Notes: generated from the sequence alone by a model not told the origin. DNA of 64,000 bases from Alphaproteobacteria bacterium (GCA_021741325.1 JAIOYC010000001.1:3906-67905), one strand, 5' to 3'; shown: positions 6,805-31,990, counted from the first letter of the stretch. Translations and numbers: made by a program.

Positions 6805-7032
6805 TTGACTCGGGGAAATGCTTGGCTTAAGAATGGACTCGTCTTTGTTATAAATCCGTAAAATCGAAATGATTTACACCGCTGGCAAGACAGCGTGATT
6901 TGGAAAGTTTATTTTCCGGTCTTAGCAGCGCGGCGGTTTTTACGGCACAAAGCCTTGACCCCTTTTATTTTTTAACCCCTTTGGACCGTTAGAAAACCGT
7001 ATCTCAACTCCCTCTCCCCGAATGGACACCCC
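6805..7032 (+). promoter_or_regulatory. putative rho promoter (TTGACT-N17-TAAGAA at 6805-6833) plus a leader of about 195 nt
   Basis: cTTGACTcggggaaatgcttggctTAAGAAtgg. The leader ends in a C-rich, G-poor tract (ctcaactccctctccccgaatggacacccc). Confidence 0.4.
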
Positions 7033-9841: not shown

Positions 9842-11047
9842 ATGACAAATTCAGAGGAAAAAAAGTCGTTCAAGGCCGGCGAAATCATCATGAGGCAGGG
9901 CGAAGAAGGCCATGCCGCGTATGTTATAGAAAAAGGCCGGGTGGAGATCCTGATTCAGCGTCCCGACGGCGTGGAGCAATCTGTGGGAACGCGCGGCGTG
10001 GGCACGATGATCGGGGAAATGGCCATCGTGGACCGCGCGCCCCGGACGGCCACCGTTCGAGCTATTGAGGATTGTTCCCTGCTGGAGATCACGGCGGAGG
10101 ATTTTTCCCGCAGGCTGGAAGAGACAGATCCTATTTTACGGATGACGGCGCAGGTGATCCTGACCCGCTACCGCGACACCCTCACCCGGGCGCATATCAG
10201 CGGCGAGAACAGATCCTGGCCACCCGTGGAGGCTGTGGAGTTGAATTACGCAGGGCAATCCCACGCGGTTGAATCCATCAAGATCGCCAACGAATTCAAG
10301 GATGCGCTGGACCGGAAGCAGCTTTTGCTTCATTACCAGCCGATTATGAACCTGCAGACGGGCGTCGTTGCAGGATTTGAGGCGCTTATGCGCTGGAATC
10401 ATCCCGAGCGCGGGCCTATTTCGCCGGGCGTCTTCATCCCGATTGCGGAAAAAAGCGGCCTGATCGTGCAGGCCAGCCAGTGGGCTCTGCGGGAAGCCTG
10501 CGCGGCGCTGAAGCGCACGGAGGCGCGCACCGGCTATGACCGGCATTTGTTCATGAGCGTGAATTTCTCAAGCTCTGATTTTGCCTCGGACGATTTTGTA
10601 AACAGCGTCTACAACACGATCAGCGAAAGCGATGTGCGCCCCGACCAGGTGCATCTGGAGATTACCGAGCGGTTGCTCATGGATCAGCCGGACAATGCCC
10701 GGGAAACTCTCATGATGTGCCGCAAGGCAGGCATGAGCATTGCCATCGACGATTTCGGGACGGGTTATTCGTCTCTCAGCTATTTGCATTATTTCCCGAT
10801 CGACACGCTGAAGATCGACCAGAGTTTCGTGCGGGACATGCGCAAGAATGCCAACAGCATGGCCCTGATCCGCTCGATCATCGCGCTGGGGAAGAACATG
10901 GGCATGAAGATCATCGCCGAAGGGGTGGAAGAGGCCGTGGAGGGTGATACGCTTCGCGAGCTGGGCTGCGACATGGCGCAGGGTTATTATTTCGCGCGCC
11001 CCATGGCGGAGGCGGATCTGGTGAAGTTTGTCAGGGATTCCCTCTAA
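9842..11047 (+). CDS. cyclic-nucleotide-binding domain / EAL-domain protein (putative c-di-GMP phosphodiesterase)
   Basis: N-terminal cNMP-binding fold (GEMAIVDRAPRTATVRA). C-terminal EAL domain with EALMRW, DDFGTGYSSLSYL and IAEGVEE. No GGDEF domain. Confidence 0.88.
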   Translation: MTNSEEKKSFKAGEIIMRQGEEGHAAYVIEKGRVEILIQRPDGVEQSVGTRGVGTMIGEMAIVDRAPRTATVRAIEDCSLLEITAEDFSRRLEETDPILRMTAQVILTRYRDTLTRAHISGENRSWPPVEAVELNYAGQSHAVESIKIANEFKDALDRKQLLLHYQPIMNLQTGVVAGFEALMRWNHPERGPISPGVFIPIAEKSGLIVQASQWALREACAALKRTEARTGYDRHLFMSVNFSSSDFASDDFVNSVYNTISESDVRPDQVHLEITERLLMDQPDNARETLMMCRKAGMSIAIDDFGTGYSSLSYLHYFPIDTLKIDQSFVRDMRKNANSMALIRSIIALGKNMGMKIIAEGVEEAVEGDTLRELGCDMAQGYYFARPMAEADLVKFVRDSL

Positions 11048-17273: not shown

Positions 17274-17385
17274 TATTTTACCCATCATCCTGTTTTTATA
17301 CCCCTATTTATTGTTCTTTTGATGGCTGTGCTGTACGCGAAGTCCTGCACGTGATATTTTTAGAAAAAATTCGGGAAGATCGAAT

Positions 17386-18531
17386 ATGCCGCGCTCCAGC
17401 TCCCAGATCGTTCATGAATCGGAAACGCAACGACAGCATGTACGTGTGGGAATTCCGGCCATTGTACGTCTCAATGGGCGTGAATATCAGGTCAAGGATT
17501 TATCCGTGGGCGGGGTCAGCCTTGCGGATATGGGGGATATTTACCGGTCCCGACAAAATCTGAATCTTCAGCTTGTTTTTCGATTTACGGATTTTGGCTT
17601 TACGCTCGACCTCAAAGCCCAGGTCGAGTACTTTGATAAATCAAGCCGCTCTCTGGGCTGCCGTTTCCTAAATTTGACGGAGTCGCAGCTTTCCATTCTG
17701 AACTTCATCATAAAGTCGCACATGAACAATGCGATCGTAACGGAAGGAGATCTCTTGCATGTAGCGGGACGCTCGAACTTCGTTCAGGCGCGATCTTCTT
17801 TGGGGGTCAGCCCCGAGGAAGACCGGACTTCCCGGGTACGCAAGGCCGTTTTTATCGCCTTCATCGCCCTTTCTGGAATGCTGGGATTGTTTTTTATTCT
17901 CGGAAATATTTATGAAAGCGTATCCATCATCAAGTCTTATCAAGGAACGGTGAAAGGAGACACCGTTCTTTCGCGGACCGCCAGCGAAGGAACCTTCCAC
18001 TCGCTCTTGCCTCCTGGCACCAAGCGCGTTGGACAGGGCCAGGCTCTTGCGGAAATTAACGGGCTTACAATCGGGCCAGCGAGCGCGGACACAAGCCCCC
18101 CGCTTAAGCCTTTTCCTGACAATGTGGGTCTGGCCCCAACCACGGCCGCACCTCCAGCAACAGGGCTTCCTCCCCAATTCTATACGGTCAAGAGAATCGT
18201 CAAAAGTCCTTGTGATTGCTATGTCGTTCATCAGTTCGTTAGAGATGGGGAATTCCGTGGTGTGGGTGAGCCGCTTTTCAAATTGATGCCTGTGAATTCC
18301 CGTCCCTGGATTACAGCGACCATTCTGCCCAGGGACGCCCACCGCCTCAATCTCCGGAATGAGGTGAATATCCGCATCGCCGGAGAAACCGCCTTCGTTC
18401 CCGGTCATGTCGTCAGCATCGATTCTCGAGATGAGGATGTACCGATCACCACCGTCAAAATTCTTCCGCAGGCAGATCTTCCCCAAGAAGTTGTGGGGCG
18501 GCCCGCCTATGTGGAGTTTTTAATTTATTAA
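17386..18531 (+). CDS. Alg44-like protein: N-terminal PilZ (c-di-GMP receptor) domain, one TM segment, C-terminal membrane-fusion (HlyD-like) domain
   Basis: PilZ motifs RQHVR (RxxxR) and DLSVGG (DxSxxG). IVHESETQRQHVRV and SPCDCYVVHQFV are collinear with my recollection of P. aeruginosa Alg44 (VVHESEAQRQFARV, SPCDCRVVQQLV). TM segment VFIAFIALSGMLGLFFILGNIY. Confidence 0.85.
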   Translation: MPRSSSQIVHESETQRQHVRVGIPAIVRLNGREYQVKDLSVGGVSLADMGDIYRSRQNLNLQLVFRFTDFGFTLDLKAQVEYFDKSSRSLGCRFLNLTESQLSILNFIIKSHMNNAIVTEGDLLHVAGRSNFVQARSSLGVSPEEDRTSRVRKAVFIAFIALSGMLGLFFILGNIYESVSIIKSYQGTVKGDTVLSRTASEGTFHSLLPPGTKRVGQGQALAEINGLTIGPASADTSPPLKPFPDNVGLAPTTAAPPATGLPPQFYTVKRIVKSPCDCYVVHQFVRDGEFRGVGEPLFKLMPVNSRPWITATILPRDAHRLNLRNEVNIRIAGETAFVPGHVVSIDSRDEDVPITTVKILPQADLPQEVVGRPAYVEFLIY

Positions 18532-18579
18532 AATCAGGCGAACACTTATAATTTAGCGTAGCGCGCGGGAAAATTTTTA

Positions 18580-20025
18580 ATGAGTGTAATCGTCCCTGTG
18601 ATCTTGAATGGCGGTACGGGCGCCCGCCTCTGGCCCCTGAGCCGCCGGAATCAGCCCAAGCAATTTTTAAAGCTGCTGGGGGGCCGTACGCTTTTTCAGG
18701 CCACTATCCTGCGCGCGCTTGAAACATCCGGCGTGTCCGCTTCTCAGATCGTGACCGTGACGCTGGGACGTCTCAAGAAGAAAACCATCGAAGAATTATC
18801 AGCATTGGATCAAAGCTTGGCCATGCATGTTCTTGGAGAACCGGAGGCCCGAAACACTGCCGGAGCTTTTTTGTTCGCGGCGCATTATGTGCGCCGGCAC
18901 TGGGGGAAAGACGCCCTGATGTGGGTGCTTCCCTCGGATCACAATGTGGGAGATATCCAGGCCCTGAAAGAGGCCCTGAGGATCGCGCTACCCCTTGCCG
19001 CGAAAGGCTTTCTGGTAACATTTGGCATCAACCCGACCCGGCCGGAAACGGGCTATGGCTACATTCATGCCGGAGAGTCCCTGCCCGAAGAGCAAACGCG
19101 AAGAGTGAAGAGCTTTTTTGAAAAGCCCCCCAAAAAACTGGCTGAGGAACTCTATGAGTCTGGCGAATATCTCTGGAGCAGCGGCGTTCATCTTTTCAAC
19201 GCGGGCAGTCTCATTGATAATTTTATTGCATATGCGCCAGAAACCGCCGCGCTGATGACACAAGCGCTTTCTTCCAGCGCGGACGGCAAAATGCCCTCCA
19301 TGGAACTGTATGCGACCCTTAAAAAAGAACCCTACGAGAAAGCCGTTCTTGAGAAAGCCGCAGAGCAAGGTGAAAACGTCGCGGTGGTGCCGTGCGATCC
19401 GCGATGGTCAGATATAGGATCATGGCAAAGCCTTTGGGAGATCAGGGAAAAAGATCCGGAAGGAAACGCCGTCGAGGGCCGTGTCTTGTGCAAGAATACA
19501 CAGAACTGTTTCATTCACTCTTCCACCGACAGGCTGATTGCCTGTATTGGGCTACGTGACCTGGTGATCGCTGACATGGGCGATGTTGTCATGATTGCCG
19601 ATAAGAACGACAATGAGGGGATACGGACTGTCGCGGAGACGCTTGAGCAGGCTCGCATGAAAGAAGGAATCGCGCTTTCGGACGAGGAGTTTCAGTGGGG
19701 AGGCGTCAAAACGATTTCCGAGGCCCGGGGATTCAAACTTCGGGAAGTCCTTATAAAACCAGGCCAGCGGCGCAATTTCAGGATGCACCGCCACCGGACC
19801 GAATTTTGGGTTATTGCCTCCGGAGAGGCCCTTGTCGCGCTGAACGGGCAGACGCAAACCCTGGTCGCCCAGGACAGCGTTTCCGTACCGCCCGGCATGG
19901 TCCATGAAATCCAAAATCCGGGTGTTCTCGATCTGCGGATATTCGAGTTTCAGTATGGCGATCATCTGGATGAGAATGATACCCTCCAGTTTGAAGATCC
20001 GTACGGCCAGGAACTTGCGGCGTGA
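18580..20025 (+). CDS. mannose-1-phosphate guanylyltransferase / mannose-6-phosphate isomerase (ManC/AlgA type)
   Basis: ILNGGTGARLWPLSR nucleotidyltransferase N-terminus, C-terminal cupin, 481 aa. Confidence 0.9.
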   Translation: MSVIVPVILNGGTGARLWPLSRRNQPKQFLKLLGGRTLFQATILRALETSGVSASQIVTVTLGRLKKKTIEELSALDQSLAMHVLGEPEARNTAGAFLFAAHYVRRHWGKDALMWVLPSDHNVGDIQALKEALRIALPLAAKGFLVTFGINPTRPETGYGYIHAGESLPEEQTRRVKSFFEKPPKKLAEELYESGEYLWSSGVHLFNAGSLIDNFIAYAPETAALMTQALSSSADGKMPSMELYATLKKEPYEKAVLEKAAEQGENVAVVPCDPRWSDIGSWQSLWEIREKDPEGNAVEGRVLCKNTQNCFIHSSTDRLIACIGLRDLVIADMGDVVMIADKNDNEGIRTVAETLEQARMKEGIALSDEEFQWGGVKTISEARGFKLREVLIKPGQRRNFRMHRHRTEFWVIASGEALVALNGQTQTLVAQDSVSVPPGMVHEIQNPGVLDLRIFEFQYGDHLDENDTLQFEDPYGQELAA

Positions 20026-20639
20026 TGAAGAAAAAAATACCAAATCGTTTGAACGCCGCCCTTGTGCGGTCTGGATTTTGCTTTGCTGTTTTCTGGCTGC
20101 TCCTGAGCGGGTGCGCAGATATGAAGACCGCAAACAGCGCGCACAAAAACGGGGATTACGAGACAGCCGCCGCCCATTGGGAAACGCTGGCTGAATTTGG
20201 CCTTCCGAAAGCCCAACTTTCCCTGGGAAGAGCCTATATGAAAGGCCGGGGTGTGAGCGCTGATCCCGTGCGGGCGCGGGCGCTTTTCGAGGCCGCCGCC
20301 GCGCAAGGGGAAGCCGCCGCGCTCTACGAACTGGGGTACATCTACGAGAAGGGCGCGGGGGTGGAGCCGGACGGTGTCCGTGCGCTTTCTTACTATGGAC
20401 AGGCCAGCGACAAGGGCTATGTCCGCGCTGATTATGCGATGGCGCGCCTGTATGACCGAGGGCGAATAATACCCCCCAATCCTGAGCTCGCTCATGCTCA
20501 TTATATGATCGCGGCCCAGGGCGGCCTTGAAAAAGCCCGGGCTGATCTGGAGCGAAAAGCACCGATTGCCTCTGGGCCCCGTTGGCGCGCCCGGGGAAAT
20601 ATTATAGAACAATCCGACATGACGCCTGCTGACGAATAA
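20022..20639 (+). CDS. Sel1-repeat lipoprotein (short AlgK-like)
   Basis: Lipobox LLSGC. Repeated A..LG..Y..G.GV..D units (Sel1/TPR-like). The start overlaps the manC-like stop (GTG 20022 or ATG 20025). Confidence 0.7.
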   Translation: MMKKKIPNRLNAALVRSGFCFAVFWLLLSGCADMKTANSAHKNGDYETAAAHWETLAEFGLPKAQLSLGRAYMKGRGVSADPVRARALFEAAAAQGEAAALYELGYIYEKGAGVEPDGVRALSYYGQASDKGYVRADYAMARLYDRGRIIPPNPELAHAHYMIAAQGGLEKARADLERKAPIASGPRWRARGNIIEQSDMTPADE

Positions 20640-20669
20640 TAAAGTTTAAGAACGGGAAAGTCCCAATCT

Positions 20670-22082
20670 ATGCATCGTCTCTTTTTTATTTTTACCGCGC
20701 TCGTCCTCCTGCCGCTCAAGGCCCGCGCGTTCGATCCGGACTTCAAACTCAACGGGCAGATAACCGCCCAGTATAATGGTTTTGAAAACAGCGACCTGGG
20801 AACGCTCAACCGGGACTTCCAGAGCAGCGGCTCCTTGCAGCCGCGCCTGCGCCTGAGCGCTGACCTGACCGATACCCTGAGCGCCTATGTGGATGCCGGA
20901 GCCCTTCTGATCCAGGGAGATTCCGGCGCAGAAGATGAAACCGGAGAGGTCTTTAATGAAAGTTTTTCCGAACTTCGAAATTTCTGGATCAAGAAAAAGG
21001 AATTGTTCAGGGTCCTTCCTCTCAGTCTTCAGATCGGACGTCAGCGTATAAGAGAAGACAGAGCCCTGTGGTGGAACCGGGATCTGGATGCCGCCCGCCT
21101 AAATTATGACACAACGTTGTTTCATGGATTTGTCGGGCTGGGAGAAAATCTCTCTTCCTACCGCACCGGCCAGGGAAGTGATTTCAGGCAGGATGACAAA
21201 AACCGTCTGCGCGCGCTCGGCGAGGGGTCTTGGCAGTGGGCGCGGAATCATCATTTCGACCTGCGCGCCCTGTACGAGCACGACCATTCCGGCATCGAAA
21301 ATCCCGGCACGAGAATTCGCGCCGATGATCGGGATGAGGAAGACGGGAATTTTTTCTGGCTGGGTGCGCGCGCGCACGGCATCATCGCAAAAGCCGATTC
21401 CCTGGCACAGGCCATCCATTACCGCGCCGATCTCATTGGTGTGGGCGGAAAAGAAGACACGCTGACAACAATCTCCGGTCTGGGAAGCGATTTCAGGGCC
21501 GTGACAGGGGCCGTGGAGCGCGATGTTTCCGGCTGGGCTGTGGACGCGGAGATGGATGTGGAGATTAAATCTCCCCGGAAACCGCTCTTGACGCTTGGCT
21601 ACGCCTATGGGTCCGGGGATGATGATACGGCGGACAATAAGGACCATGCCTTTCGCCAGACCGGCCTTCACGGAAATTCAAGCCGACTGGGGCTTTCCAG
21701 CGGATCCGTGCGCAATTACGGCGAAGTCCTGCGCCCCGAGCTCTCCAATCTTCACATCCTTACCGCAGGGGCCGGTGTGGCGTTGACAGACTATACGAAT
21801 CTAAGTCTGTTCTATCATTATTACCACCTCGACAAGCCCGCGACGTCCCTGAGGCAGGGATCAATTTCAGCCGCCTTGAATGGCCGGGACAAATCCTTGG
21901 GCCATGCGGCCGATCTGATCTTGAACACGAACGTCACCAGCCTCCTGACCCGGAAACCTGAAAAACCGGAAGATGTCCGCCTCAAAATTTCTCTGGGAGG
22001 TTTCAGCGCGGGCGAAGCTTACGGTCCCGCAAAAGATGAAACGGCGCTCCGGGCATTTTCAGAGCTTCAGGTGCGGTTTTAG
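20670..22082 (+). CDS. alginate-export-family outer-membrane beta-barrel porin (AlgE-like)
   Basis: Signal peptide ..LLPLKARA/FD and C-terminal ..ELQVRF. Blocks LQIGRQRIREDRALWW, FRQTGLHGNSSR, YGEVLRPELSNL and GEAYGPAKDETALRAF match remembered AlgE blocks (LRFGRQRLREDSGQW, FQQTGLESNRS, FGEAFRGELSNL, GDAYGPGTDSTMHRAF). Confidence 0.85.
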   Translation: MHRLFFIFTALVLLPLKARAFDPDFKLNGQITAQYNGFENSDLGTLNRDFQSSGSLQPRLRLSADLTDTLSAYVDAGALLIQGDSGAEDETGEVFNESFSELRNFWIKKKELFRVLPLSLQIGRQRIREDRALWWNRDLDAARLNYDTTLFHGFVGLGENLSSYRTGQGSDFRQDDKNRLRALGEGSWQWARNHHFDLRALYEHDHSGIENPGTRIRADDRDEEDGNFFWLGARAHGIIAKADSLAQAIHYRADLIGVGGKEDTLTTISGLGSDFRAVTGAVERDVSGWAVDAEMDVEIKSPRKPLLTLGYAYGSGDDDTADNKDHAFRQTGLHGNSSRLGLSSGSVRNYGEVLRPELSNLHILTAGAGVALTDYTNLSLFYHYYHLDKPATSLRQGSISAALNGRDKSLGHAADLILNTNVTSLLTRKPEKPEDVRLKISLGGFSAGEAYGPAKDETALRAFSELQVRF

Positions 22083-24205: not shown

Positions 24206-25264
24206 ATGAAAAAGAGCCAAAAAACAATTCATCTCGATAAAATCAGCTCCGTCACGCGGAACCTGAATCTTACGCACGAAGAAGCGCTGACCGACGATCT
24301 GTCCACCGCCATGGGCACGGTTCTGGCCGTCCAGGTGCTGGAAGACAAATCCATTTACAACGAGATGGAGCTGCCCTCAGGCCGGATGTCGCGCCTCAAG
24401 AAAGGTGACGTGATCGCCGTGGCGCTGGGCGAGCGCATGGCCCTGAAGGGCTTTGCCGGGCACCTGCCCAAGAGCCTGAAAACCGATGATGTTATCCACC
24501 TTCTGAATTTCGGCGGGATCGCCGGCGAATGCACCAGCGCCAACACGAAGGAGGTCGGCGACCCCCTGCGGATCCGGGTTCTGGGCGGGATCGCGCGCAA
24601 GGGAAAGCTTGTGAATATAGGAGATGCGCGGCTGTTCAGCGAGGCTGATCGCCTGACCAACGACATTCCCCTCATCATTACGACGGGTAGCAGCATGGAC
24701 AGCGGCAAGACCACGGTGGCGGCGGAGATGACCAAGACCCTTGTGCGCATGGGCATGAAACTGGCCGGCGCGAAGGTGACGGGCGTAGGGGCAATGCGGG
24801 ATCTCTACAAGATGGAGGATTACGGCATTCGCGAAACCGTGTCCTTCGTGGATTGCGGCATTACCTCCACCGCGAATATCGGCGCCGACCAAGTCATCCG
24901 CATGACCAAGGGCGCCCTGAACTATCTCGCCAAGGGACGGCCTGATGCGATCGTCGTGGAATTCGGGGACGGGCTGATGGGCCGCTACGGCGTGCGCCCC
25001 ATTCTGGAAGACCGCGAAATTCAGAAAAATGTGCGCCTTCATGTCGGCTGCGCGCGCGATCCCGTGGGCGCGGTGAAGCTGGGCGAGGATTGCGCGGCCC
25101 TGGGCCTGCCCATCGACGTGATGAGCGGTCCCGTGACCGACAACGAGGTAGGGCAGGATTTGATCCGGGAGCATATGGACGTCCTAGTCTACAACGCCTT
25201 CAACCCCAACAACCGGTGGCTGGACCTGGTGCTGTCCCGGTGGGCGGTGGATTATGCGGCATAA
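24206..25264 (+). CDS. hypothetical protein with a BioD/CobQ/DUF1611-type P-loop; first gene of the arg operon
   Basis: 352 aa. TTGSSMDSGKTTVAAEM fits G[ST]xxxxGK[TS]. 11-nt overlap with argC. No GNAT, ArgJ or ArgE motifs recognised. Confidence 0.75.
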   Translation: MKKSQKTIHLDKISSVTRNLNLTHEEALTDDLSTAMGTVLAVQVLEDKSIYNEMELPSGRMSRLKKGDVIAVALGERMALKGFAGHLPKSLKTDDVIHLLNFGGIAGECTSANTKEVGDPLRIRVLGGIARKGKLVNIGDARLFSEADRLTNDIPLIITTGSSMDSGKTTVAAEMTKTLVRMGMKLAGAKVTGVGAMRDLYKMEDYGIRETVSFVDCGITSTANIGADQVIRMTKGALNYLAKGRPDAIVVEFGDGLMGRYGVRPILEDREIQKNVRLHVGCARDPVGAVKLGEDCAALGLPIDVMSGPVTDNEVGQDLIREHMDVLVYNAFNPNNRWLDLVLSRWAVDYAA

Positions 25265-30713: not shown

Positions 30714-30988
30714 GTCTTCTTTCTCCACCTCTTTGAAGTGTGCGAGAGCGACCTGGAAACAGTCCTCTTCACTTTTCCTGGTCGAAGGGTCATTAAATAT
30801 TTTCAATCTCAATAATATAAAGTTTAATCGGATGTGATCTGAAAGGCACAAAACCACTCCTCTTACCTATTAATTTCTTATGTTAATGTAGTGTTTACCA
30901 TCTGCCCCTTACAGTATATCCATAAAACAAAGATTATACGCGCAACAGTTGCGTAGATCAGAAAAAACGGTTGTACGGGGAAGACATC

Positions 30989-31990
30989 ATGGCTCTGGGA
31001 GACAAAGAGCATAGCCGCCTTACAGGAGACGCCACCGGGCTGACCGGCGGCCTGCGCGGGTCTTTTGCGGCGGCCAACAAGTTGCCGTCCTCCGATCTGC
31101 CCACCTTTGAGGAGCTGACCGAGAAACGCCGCAACGATTACGCGCTGAACGGACTTCTCAACGGAGAGGGCGAAGCGGATTTCGCGGGCCTGATGGGCAG
31201 GTACGGCGTTGCGGAGAAGAGCTTTCACGGTGTGACCGAACACAAGCGGAAAGAAGAGGATTTCTACCGGATTTTGATACGGCAGGCTATACTGGAAAGC
31301 CTGCAACGGCTGAACGAGCACATCCAATGGTTGACGGATCAGATTGAGCTTCTGCGCCTGGATATCGCTGAAATCGATGCGGACATGGCCAAGAATACAG
31401 GCCGGATCGATGAAATCAAACTCAGGCGCGCCGCGGGGGAAGACGCCCTGTCCTATTTCAACAAATATGGCGTTCTGGAACGCAACCCGGACGGAACACT
31501 CAAGAACCCCCGCGCGCAAGCTCTTTTGGATGATTACAAGGCCCGGACCGGGAAAGAGCCGGAAGACGATTATATCGCGGCCTATTTTATACAAGAACAG
31601 CTTAAATTCGATAAAGCCGAAGAAGATGGTTGCCGGAAGGACAACGACCATCTCGAAGAGAAACGCACGGAAAAGGAAATCCTGCTGGAACAGATGGAAC
31701 GGGATAAAGACCGGTTTCTCCGGGAGCGGGACCGTATTCTGAAGATAGAGGATCCCGCAGAGCAGGCAAAGCAGATGGAAGCACTGAACACCCAATTCAG
31801 CCAAGCCGTTCTTGAAGCTGCACAAGACTCTTTGAACAGTGAAGACAAAGACCTAAAACAGGCTCTAGATGAAAAACCTCATAAAAACGAAACAATTGAA
31901 ACAAGCGCGGACGAGCTGTGGGCCCTGGAGGGTGAATCAAAATCAAATACTCTTACATCCACAAATCCCCTGAAACCGATGGGCCCTTGA
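30989..31990 (+). CDS. orphan, highly charged coiled-coil protein
   Basis: The ATG at 30989 lies inside the track ORF (30971). E/K/D/L-rich heptad-like sequence (..LQRLNEHIQWLTDQIELLRLDIAEIDADMAK..). The antisense ORF 30878-31825 looks like an F/L-rich shadow frame. Confidence 0.65.
   Translation: MALGDKEHSRLTGDATGLTGGLRGSFAAANKLPSSDLPTFEELTEKRRNDYALNGLLNGEGEADFAGLMGRYGVAEKSFHGVTEHKRKEEDFYRILIRQAILESLQRLNEHIQWLTDQIELLRLDIAEIDADMAKNTGRIDEIKLRRAAGEDALSYFNKYGVLERNPDGTLKNPRAQALLDDYKARTGKEPEDDYIAAYFIQEQLKFDKAEEDGCRKDNDHLEEKRTEKEILLEQMERDKDRFLRERDRILKIEDPAEQAKQMEALNTQFSQAVLEAAQDSLNSEDKDLKQALDEKPHKNETIETSADELWALEGESKSNTLTSTNPLKPMGP

Follow-up and report, generated by a model that had tools for sequence, protein, structure and literature searches.

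An isolated alg44-algA-sel1-algE block in an alphaproteobacterial genome and its relation to rearranged alginate-type clusters

The subject of this work is a block of four genes at positions 17386-22082 of a 64,000-nucleotide stretch of DNA (Alphaproteobacteria bacterium, GCA_021741325.1 JAIOYC010000001.1:3906-67905; the whole stretch is referred to as the window), which encode an Alg44-like receptor, an AlgA/ManC enzyme, a short Sel1 lipoprotein and an AlgE-like porin. Judged by comparison with related loci, these genes appear to be a single transcription unit out of the several that make up an alginate cluster, and the block would represent the conserved core sub-operon, alg44-algA-algK(short)-algE, of an alphaproteobacterial polymannuronate-type, synthase-dependent secretion system. 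We lean, if only modestly, toward a split alginate-type system, of which this block would be the receptor and export half and whose partners lie elsewhere in the same genome. An earlier annotation made from the DNA alone (the sequence-only reading) had named all four genes: Pfam, TIGR01479 and structure-sequence matches establish that these identities are correct, and the coordinates of the four open reading frames (ORFs) agree exactly:

17386-22082, plus strand: block of four co-directional ORFs, alg44-like / algA (manC) / short Sel1 / algE-like
17386..18531, plus strand: Alg44-type cyclic di-GMP (c-di-GMP) receptor/co-polymerase, 381 amino acids (aa), with an N-terminal PilZ domain, one transmembrane (TM) helix and a periplasmic membrane-fusion-like domain
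18580..20025, plus strand: AlgA/ManC bifunctional mannose-6-phosphate isomerase (PMI) / GDP-mannose pyrophosphorylase, 481 aa
20022..20639, plus strand: short outer-membrane lipoprotein with Sel1/tetratricopeptide repeats (TPR), 205 aa; translation may instead begin at the ATG at 20025
20670..22082, plus strand: AlgE-type outer-membrane beta-barrel alginate export porin, 470 aa

Both the PilZ (PF07238, 5e-9) and the HlyD-like family (HlyD_3, 1.6e-4), for which a check with profile hidden Markov models had been proposed, were found by Pfam in the product of 17386-18531, and a precomputed match of this protein to PF25964 (BSH_ALG44) is on record. The Alg44-like PilZ motifs are intact (RxxxR as RQHVR with R16 and R20; DxSxxG as DLSVGG with D38, S40 and G43), the motif SPCDCYVVHQFV is present, and the Alg44 motif SPCDCRVVQQLV, which the sequence-only reading had cited, occurs exactly in Alg44 of P. 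paraeruginosa. Overall identity to Pseudomonas Alg44 is about 30%; the N-terminus matches the crystal structures of the Alg44 PilZ domain 4RT0/4RT1 at 2e-9 (phmmer). An AlphaFold2 model built with 34 homologues, all of which share an invariant SPCDC motif, has a predicted local distance difference test score (pLDDT) of 87.4 and comprises a PilZ barrel (25-113), a long helix (147-180) and a beta-rich C-terminal domain. Its best Foldseek match is the Alg44 PilZ domain 4RT1 (TM-score 0.87, root-mean-square deviation 1.7 Å), and the remainder of the model retrieves the periplasmic adaptors BesA, EmrA and MexA. Of the features that define Alg44, the PilZ domain with its binding motifs and the TM helix with a membrane-fusion-like domain (PF25964/PF25965) are thus present; an encoded Alg8 synthase of glycosyltransferase family 2 (GT2), with which Alg44 would be paired, is absent from the 64 kb.

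The second gene product scores 404 bits against the equivalog model TIGR01479 (GMP_PMI; cut-off 373) and contains all four expected Pfam domains, namely NTP_transferase, the ManC beta-helix, MannoseP_isomer and Cupin_2. The product of 20670-22082 belongs to the family Alginate_exp (PF13372; 5e-27, 95 bits versus a cut-off of 25.2 bits), as had been predicted, and matches crystallized AlgE (4AFK/3RBH) at 8e-40 over residues 89-469. It begins with the signal peptide MHRLFFIFTALVLLPLKARA and terminates in QVRF, so that model score, signal and C-terminal aromatic residue all conform to an AlgE-type porin. As residues lining the pore of P. aeruginosa AlgE we take K47, R74, R129, R152, R353, R362, R459, R461 and R481, residues whose identities were checked on P. 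paraeruginosa AlgE. The window protein keeps R74, R129, R152 and R481 and has lysine in place of R459; K47, R353, R362 and R461 align to no basic residue, with arginines located two positions off near 353 and 362. D162/N164 are replaced by a WWNRD motif, which occurs in nearly all alphaproteobacterial AlgE proteins. Taken as a whole, this pore pattern is that of alphaproteobacterial relatives with complete clusters, the closest being the loci L002 and L086.

The lipoprotein combines Sel1 repeats (4e-22) with the lipobox LLSGC, which conforms to AlgK as a TPR/Sel1 lipoprotein, and aligns in one stretch to AlgK residues 265-419 (3E4B, 7e-19). A full-length AlgK it is not: the model NF038194 (AlgK_TPR_lipo) yields 64 bits at a cut-off of 700, and generic Sel1 proteins outscore AlgK as matches. 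Its description as AlgK-like and less than half as long as AlgK is accurate, since Pseudomonas AlgK comprises 470-475 aa versus 205 aa here. A short Sel1 gene nevertheless occupies the same position of the block in 17 related loci, and in two Micavibrio loci Sel1 repeats and AlgE barrel form one single ORF (L013:12538-14841, 767 aa; L018:12433-14241, 602 aa), a fusion of AlgK and AlgE for which we found no description in the alginate-cluster literature searched. Because these fusions tie the short Sel1 protein to the porin, they support its role as a predicted functional AlgK counterpart rather than an AlgK equivalog. The single-sequence AlphaFold2 model of the lipoprotein was poor (pLDDT 60.7) and was not used for fold searches.

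All four ORFs are intact across 4.7 kb and are tightly spaced (48 bp, a 4-bp overlap and 30 bp). The neighbors are, as had been stated, plain housekeeping genes: Pfam and NCBIfam scans identify greA upstream and cobT downstream. The latter is convergent and lies 15 bp past algE, in the place where relatives have algL or algG. The window was scanned with Pfam on 38 ORFs chosen to cover the likely genes of the whole 64 kb as well as with tblastn (E<=1e-4), using Pseudomonas and alphaproteobacterial Alg8, AlgD, AlgG, AlgX, AlgL, AlgI, AlgJ-like and AlgF as references. Both approaches bear out that alg8, algD, algG, algX, algL and algI/J/F are missing from it, and Pfam detects no GT2 in the 64 kb. 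Consequently, the linkage of these genes with alg44, algK and algE that characterizes canonical alginate loci is not found in the window. Among the 38 ORFs scanned, the other functions recognized are housekeeping ones, including purD, hemE, hemH, rho, an amino-acid ABC system, sufS, arg genes, miaA and miaB, further murG, ftsW, bioB, rpoN, a class A penicillin-binding protein, cytochrome c assembly, an NAD-dependent glutamate dehydrogenase, ubiA, ahcY and glmU.

From this combination the sequence-only reading had suggested that the four genes may form a distinct minimal system, and it was the comparison with related genomes that changed the picture. An Alg44 profile scan of 185,579 species-representative genomes (GTDB), to which the MAG of the window does not belong, returned 17 alphaproteobacterial loci followed by Pseudomonas, with a best match of 39% identity to the window Alg44; further loci were obtained from look-ups of single homologues. 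The alphaproteobacterial loci stem from Micavibrio, unclassified metagenome-assembled genomes (MAGs) and one Gemmobacter MAG. The closest Alg44 homologues are only 43-47% identical, the best-matching relative, L002, shares 43-52% identity over the four proteins, and each of six window proteins that were looked up forms a singleton cluster at 90% identity. According to tblastn mapping, the order alg44-algA-short Sel1-algE recurs in about 20 related loci from several orders of Alphaproteobacteria, and algA invariably occupies the place after alg44 and before the Sel1 gene; as exceptions to the full order, L012 and L093 lack the Sel1 gene, and a few other loci are truncated or lie on short contigs. 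The short AlgK and the position of algA in the middle of the block are therefore features of the clade and not peculiarities of the window. This established order also argues that the four-gene neighborhood is not due to chance: ManC and Sel1 families are common, which might suggest a fortuitous assembly of unrelated housekeeping and envelope genes, but such an assembly is effectively refuted by synteny across several orders, by the tight spacers and by the strong structure matches of Alg44 and AlgE, and we consider its probability close to nil.

In 19 related loci, found in Micavibrio-like MAGs, the block lies inside a rearranged, otherwise complete alginate cluster with other alg genes adjoining, and alg8 was seen in 9 of the 19 at a distance of 0-17 kb (L005, L012, L017, L018, L079, L083, L086, L091 and L094). 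One example is the 2.36-Mb contig of L083 (ENA ctg340537), in which alg44-algA-sel1-algE-algL on the plus strand is followed by algX-algI-algF-algJ on the minus strand and then by algD-alg8 on the plus strand. L086 reads algX, alg44, algA, sel1, algE, algL, then alg8 and algD on the minus strand, then algJ and algX; L094 and L005 have a Pseudomonas-like algD-alg8-alg44 junction; and in the organism RFNZ01 alg8 follows about 17 kb downstream of alg44 within one long cluster. The Micavibrio-type clusters L083, L086, L005 and L094 share block order, AlgE pore pattern and short lipoprotein with the window. They differ from it in that algL, algX/algJ, algI and algF are also found within 0-17 kb, several of these clusters having algD and alg8 as well; the window has none of these genes. 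Measured against this cluster type, which is defined from MAG loci, the window conforms in its core order, and synteny identifies its four genes as the core sub-operon of complete, rearranged alginate clusters instead of a separate system.

Several further observations were made on these loci. A gene for a phosphoglucomutase/phosphomannomutase (algC-like) directly follows algE in L006-L009, L016, L019 and L010 and follows manC in L017, so that these clusters have their own phosphomannomutase, whereas Pseudomonas algC is unlinked. Giant RTX-type proteins (HemolysinCabind, up to 2221 aa) adjoin alg8 in L089:11621-21562 and L091:11575-16457. The C5-epimerase gene algG was not seen in the fetched clusters of the clade closest to the window (L002/L083, L086, L003/L092, L004 and L005), whereas the Micavibrio-like clade has it; for this reason, the closest clade may produce an unepimerised, acetylated polymannuronate. 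A GreA/GreB-family gene (188 aa) located about 1 kb upstream of alg44 in L003, L004 and L092 was considered as a synteny anchor and rejected: with 34-36% identity and the opposite strand, it is probably a paralogue or a coincidence.

Isolated blocks are not confined to the window. L084 (Gemmobacter sp. MAG, JBIICI010000007.1, 10001-16504) consists of alg44, a ManC with only the GDP-mannose pyrophosphorylase part (no PMI domain), Sel1, algE and a phosphomannomutase between housekeeping flanks, and its Sel1 protein keeps 12 of 20 clade-conserved positions. L093 (GCA_054009635.1, JBPNAX010000074.1, 3316-7041) contains alg44, a manC of the same pyrophosphorylase-only type and algE, has no Sel1 gene, and is preceded by thiC and followed by a recF-like gene and gyrB. 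In a neighbor-joining tree of concatenated Alg44, AlgE and ManC, the window groups with L002 and L086 (bootstrap 79), the two closest relatives, in which a distance of 5-10 kb separates alg8 and alg44. The three isolated blocks form no group of their own in this tree but are scattered among complete clusters, so that isolation is a derived state that has arisen at least three times.

We then asked whether the isolated block of the window evolves differently from its counterparts in complete clusters. Among positions that are >=85% conserved in the other loci, it keeps 41 of 44 in Alg44, 82 of 88 in ManC, 16 of 16 in Sel1 and 84 of 88 in AlgE in a leave-one-out comparison (93-100%), values in the middle of the range spanned by relatives whose clusters are complete. 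In Tajima relative-rate tests that used L002 or L086 as the sister lineage and three outgroups, the window lineage showed no surplus of unique changes: p>0.1 was obtained in 16 of 18 comparisons, and in the other two the sister lineage was the faster one. In conjunction with the AlgE pore pattern, the two analyses give no sign of relaxed constraint or of a change of substrate.

These results bear directly on the idea of a self-standing module of receptor, GDP-mannose supply, lipoprotein and porin, with a synthase that is either not Alg8 or novel and unlinked, and with some other mannose-containing polymer as its export product. It could draw on the recurrence of blocks isolated among housekeeping genes in three alphaproteobacterial lineages that are unrelated to one another (window, L084 and L093) and on the fact that in none of them is algD, the GDP-mannose dehydrogenase gene, linked. 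However, the three blocks fall on scattered branches of the tree, each with complete alginate clusters as its nearest neighbors, no alternative GT2 is found near any of them, the window Alg44 and AlgE have not diverged from those that partner Alg8, and the AlgE pore shares with its relatives several of the basic residues that would suit an anionic uronate polymer. With the same block embedded in the complete clusters described above and its proteins typical of the clade, the proposed distinct system with another polymer or a novel synthase is not supported; we consider it improbable, and a different partner or polymer has no positive support. The same low probability applies to a more general version, in which a genome without alg8 would maintain the block under purifying selection as a portable, c-di-GMP-gated export half serving a non-Alg8 synthase or another anionic mannose-derived polymer. 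If this were true, the blocks of the Gemmobacter MAG and of GCA_054009635.1 would be further instances.

Where, then, is the synthase? Since its four genes are undamaged and evolve under no less constraint than their counterparts in complete clusters, we infer that alg8, algD and the modification genes most likely reside at another locus of the same genome. Several observations weigh against this: First, none of alg8, algD, algG, algX, algL and algI/J/F occurs within the 17 kb upstream and the 42 kb downstream that the window covers. Second, two Alg8 profile searches of a collection of 5.8 billion proteins, the second with a profile built from Alg8 of two sister lineages, each yielded >2000 homologues, of which the best 120 were compared. 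The window proteins are deposited at NCBI as MCF8495045-MCF8495092, from a contig of 75,228 bp, and are all nr-flagged; hence every nr-flagged Alg8 match among the best 120 of either search was checked, most of them by accession and two by assignment to the loci L019 and L003. None of these nr-flagged matches has an MCF849xxxx accession, all of them belonging to other assemblies, nor does any NCBI or Logan candidate among the matches listed show the identity of ~65-67% to the sister Alg8 P0119 that is expected from Alg44/Alg8 identity relationships. One candidate for the Alg8 of the window genome, P0196, was discarded as it belongs to GCA_009929775.1. This outcome argues, weakly, against the presence of an annotated Alg8 in the MAG as deposited, since only the best 120 of >2000 matches were listed, the completeness of the MAG is not known and the Logan contigs of the organism are short, the one that holds the locus (run SRR12088351) measuring 4.1 kb. 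Third, algE of L093 contains an in-frame stop (6889-6891) 45 codons before the conserved C-terminal end, either through decay to a pseudogene or through an assembly error, so that isolated blocks can decay. Fourth, the GC content at third codon positions of the block (0.56-0.64) is lower than in most neighboring housekeeping genes (0.67-0.81; greA 0.60), which fits low expression or separate acquisition and could mark a separately acquired fragment.

The main rival explanation builds on several of these points. It holds that algL, algXIFJ and algD-alg8 were recently deleted and that the four genes are a leftover that makes no polymer, in which algA may persist for GDP-mannose supply while the rest is not yet lesioned. 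An orphan remnant of this kind would account for an isolation that is derived and nested among complete clusters, for the failure to recover an Alg8 of this MAG among the matches listed, for the premature stop in L093 algE and for the location of cobT in place of algL or algG; 'atypical' alginate operons are moreover known to lose gene subsets (PMC7112194). Less easily reconciled with it are four uninterrupted ORFs over 4.7 kb, the retention of 93-100% of the clade-conserved positions without rate acceleration, intact PilZ motifs and pore residues that follow the pattern of the clade; the Alg8 searches, which covered the best 120 of >2000 matches, are weak evidence in its favor. We therefore regard the remnant as a serious but doubtful alternative and prefer a split system with partners elsewhere.

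A working model for such a split system can be outlined. AlgA would supply GDP-mannose. Alg44, located in the inner membrane, would bind c-di-GMP via its PilZ domain and, by analogy with Pseudomonas, activate an Alg8-type GT2 synthase, while its membrane-fusion-like domain would span the periplasm. The short Sel1 lipoprotein would dock on or assemble the AlgE barrel, through which the anionic polymer could exit the cell. In P. aeruginosa, Alg8-Alg44 and Alg44-AlgK contacts are experimentally established (PMC4436075), and AlgK, the outer-membrane partner of AlgE, holds AlgX by its TPRs R9-R10 (PMC9734138). Relative to the ancestral cluster, the block would have been parted from the units algL, algX-algI-algF-algJ and algD-alg8. 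Without a synthase, the block alone cannot make a polymer; the identity of that polymer and the gating of its production by c-di-GMP are likewise carried over from the Pseudomonas system and may apply here.

Upstream of the block, one more feature deserves mention:

17274..17385, plus strand: greA/alg44-like intergenic region, a 112-bp AT-rich spacer in which the promoter of the block is presumed to lie

Directly past the greA stop there is a short hairpin, GGGTAATATTTTACCC, with a T-rich run after it. No consensus promoter was found in 17274..17385, and a promoter role of the spacer is therefore presumptive. Scans for promoters and terminators did not exceed what shuffled sequence yields, and a match resembling a sigma-54 site upstream of alg44 was rejected on closer examination. 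Rfam and tRNA scans found no RNA genes in the window. Elsewhere, a fusion of a cyclic-nucleotide-binding domain and an EAL domain is encoded at 9842-11047 on the plus strand (Pfam 2e-23 and 3e-74), a putative cyclic-nucleotide-regulated c-di-GMP phosphodiesterase; a distance of 6 kb separates it from the PilZ-bearing Alg44-like gene downstream. For two ORFs on the plus strand, 24206-25264 (352 aa) and 30971-31990 (339 aa), Pfam yields nothing at E<=0.01; the former also lacks an NCBIfam match, is divergent from cobT and precedes an argC-argB-argD-argF run. Regarding the organism, alphaproteobacterial origin agrees with the NCBI label, whereas a possible host association, which had also been suggested, finds no support.

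The earlier statement that the architecture departs from the Pseudomonas/Azotobacter operon, whose order is algD-alg8-alg44-algK-algE-algG-algX-algL-algI-algJ-algF-algA, is supported. Common to both are Alg44 with its PilZ motifs and fold, AlgE (8e-40, with a partly conserved basic pore), AlgA at the equivalog level and a TPR/Sel1 lipoprotein between receptor and porin, and the logic of c-di-GMP-gated, synthase-dependent export is presumably the same. In contrast, the window contains 4 of the 12 genes in 64 kb, algA is part of the block and does not close the operon, and the AlgK counterpart of 205 aa corresponds to the C-terminal third of AlgK. Rearranged, 'atypical' alginate operons of environmental bacteria that have lost functionally related gene subsets were described by Bundalovic-Torma et al. 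in 2020 (PMC7112194). What those operons have lost is either algKE, the export pair, or algGXLIJF, the modification set, whereas the window keeps the export pair together with alg44 and has its synthase unlinked. The fused Sel1-AlgE ORFs of L013 and L018 resemble the TPR-porin fusions PelB, PgaA and BcsC in coupling a TPR/Sel1 module to a barrel; in the window, Sel1 protein and barrel are separate genes and the barrel is of the AlgE family and not of that of PelB, PgaA and BcsC.

If a genome without Alg8 indeed kept the block under selection, Alg44, AlgK and AlgE would constitute a transferable c-di-GMP-gated export cassette, which would alter the view of how synthase-dependent systems co-evolve; the present data make such a cassette unlikely. 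If the partners are located elsewhere, the window represents a routine split of a known exopolysaccharide system. Loss of gene subsets from rearranged alginate operons has precedent (PMC7112194), while our literature searches found no description of alphaproteobacterial or Micavibrio alginate clusters or of the run SRR12088351. What the related loci document is an alphaproteobacterial variant of the alginate cluster, with algA in the core, an AlgK of one third the usual length and, in some Micavibrio, an AlgK-AlgE fusion, and this variant widens the known host range and modularity of the alginate machinery.

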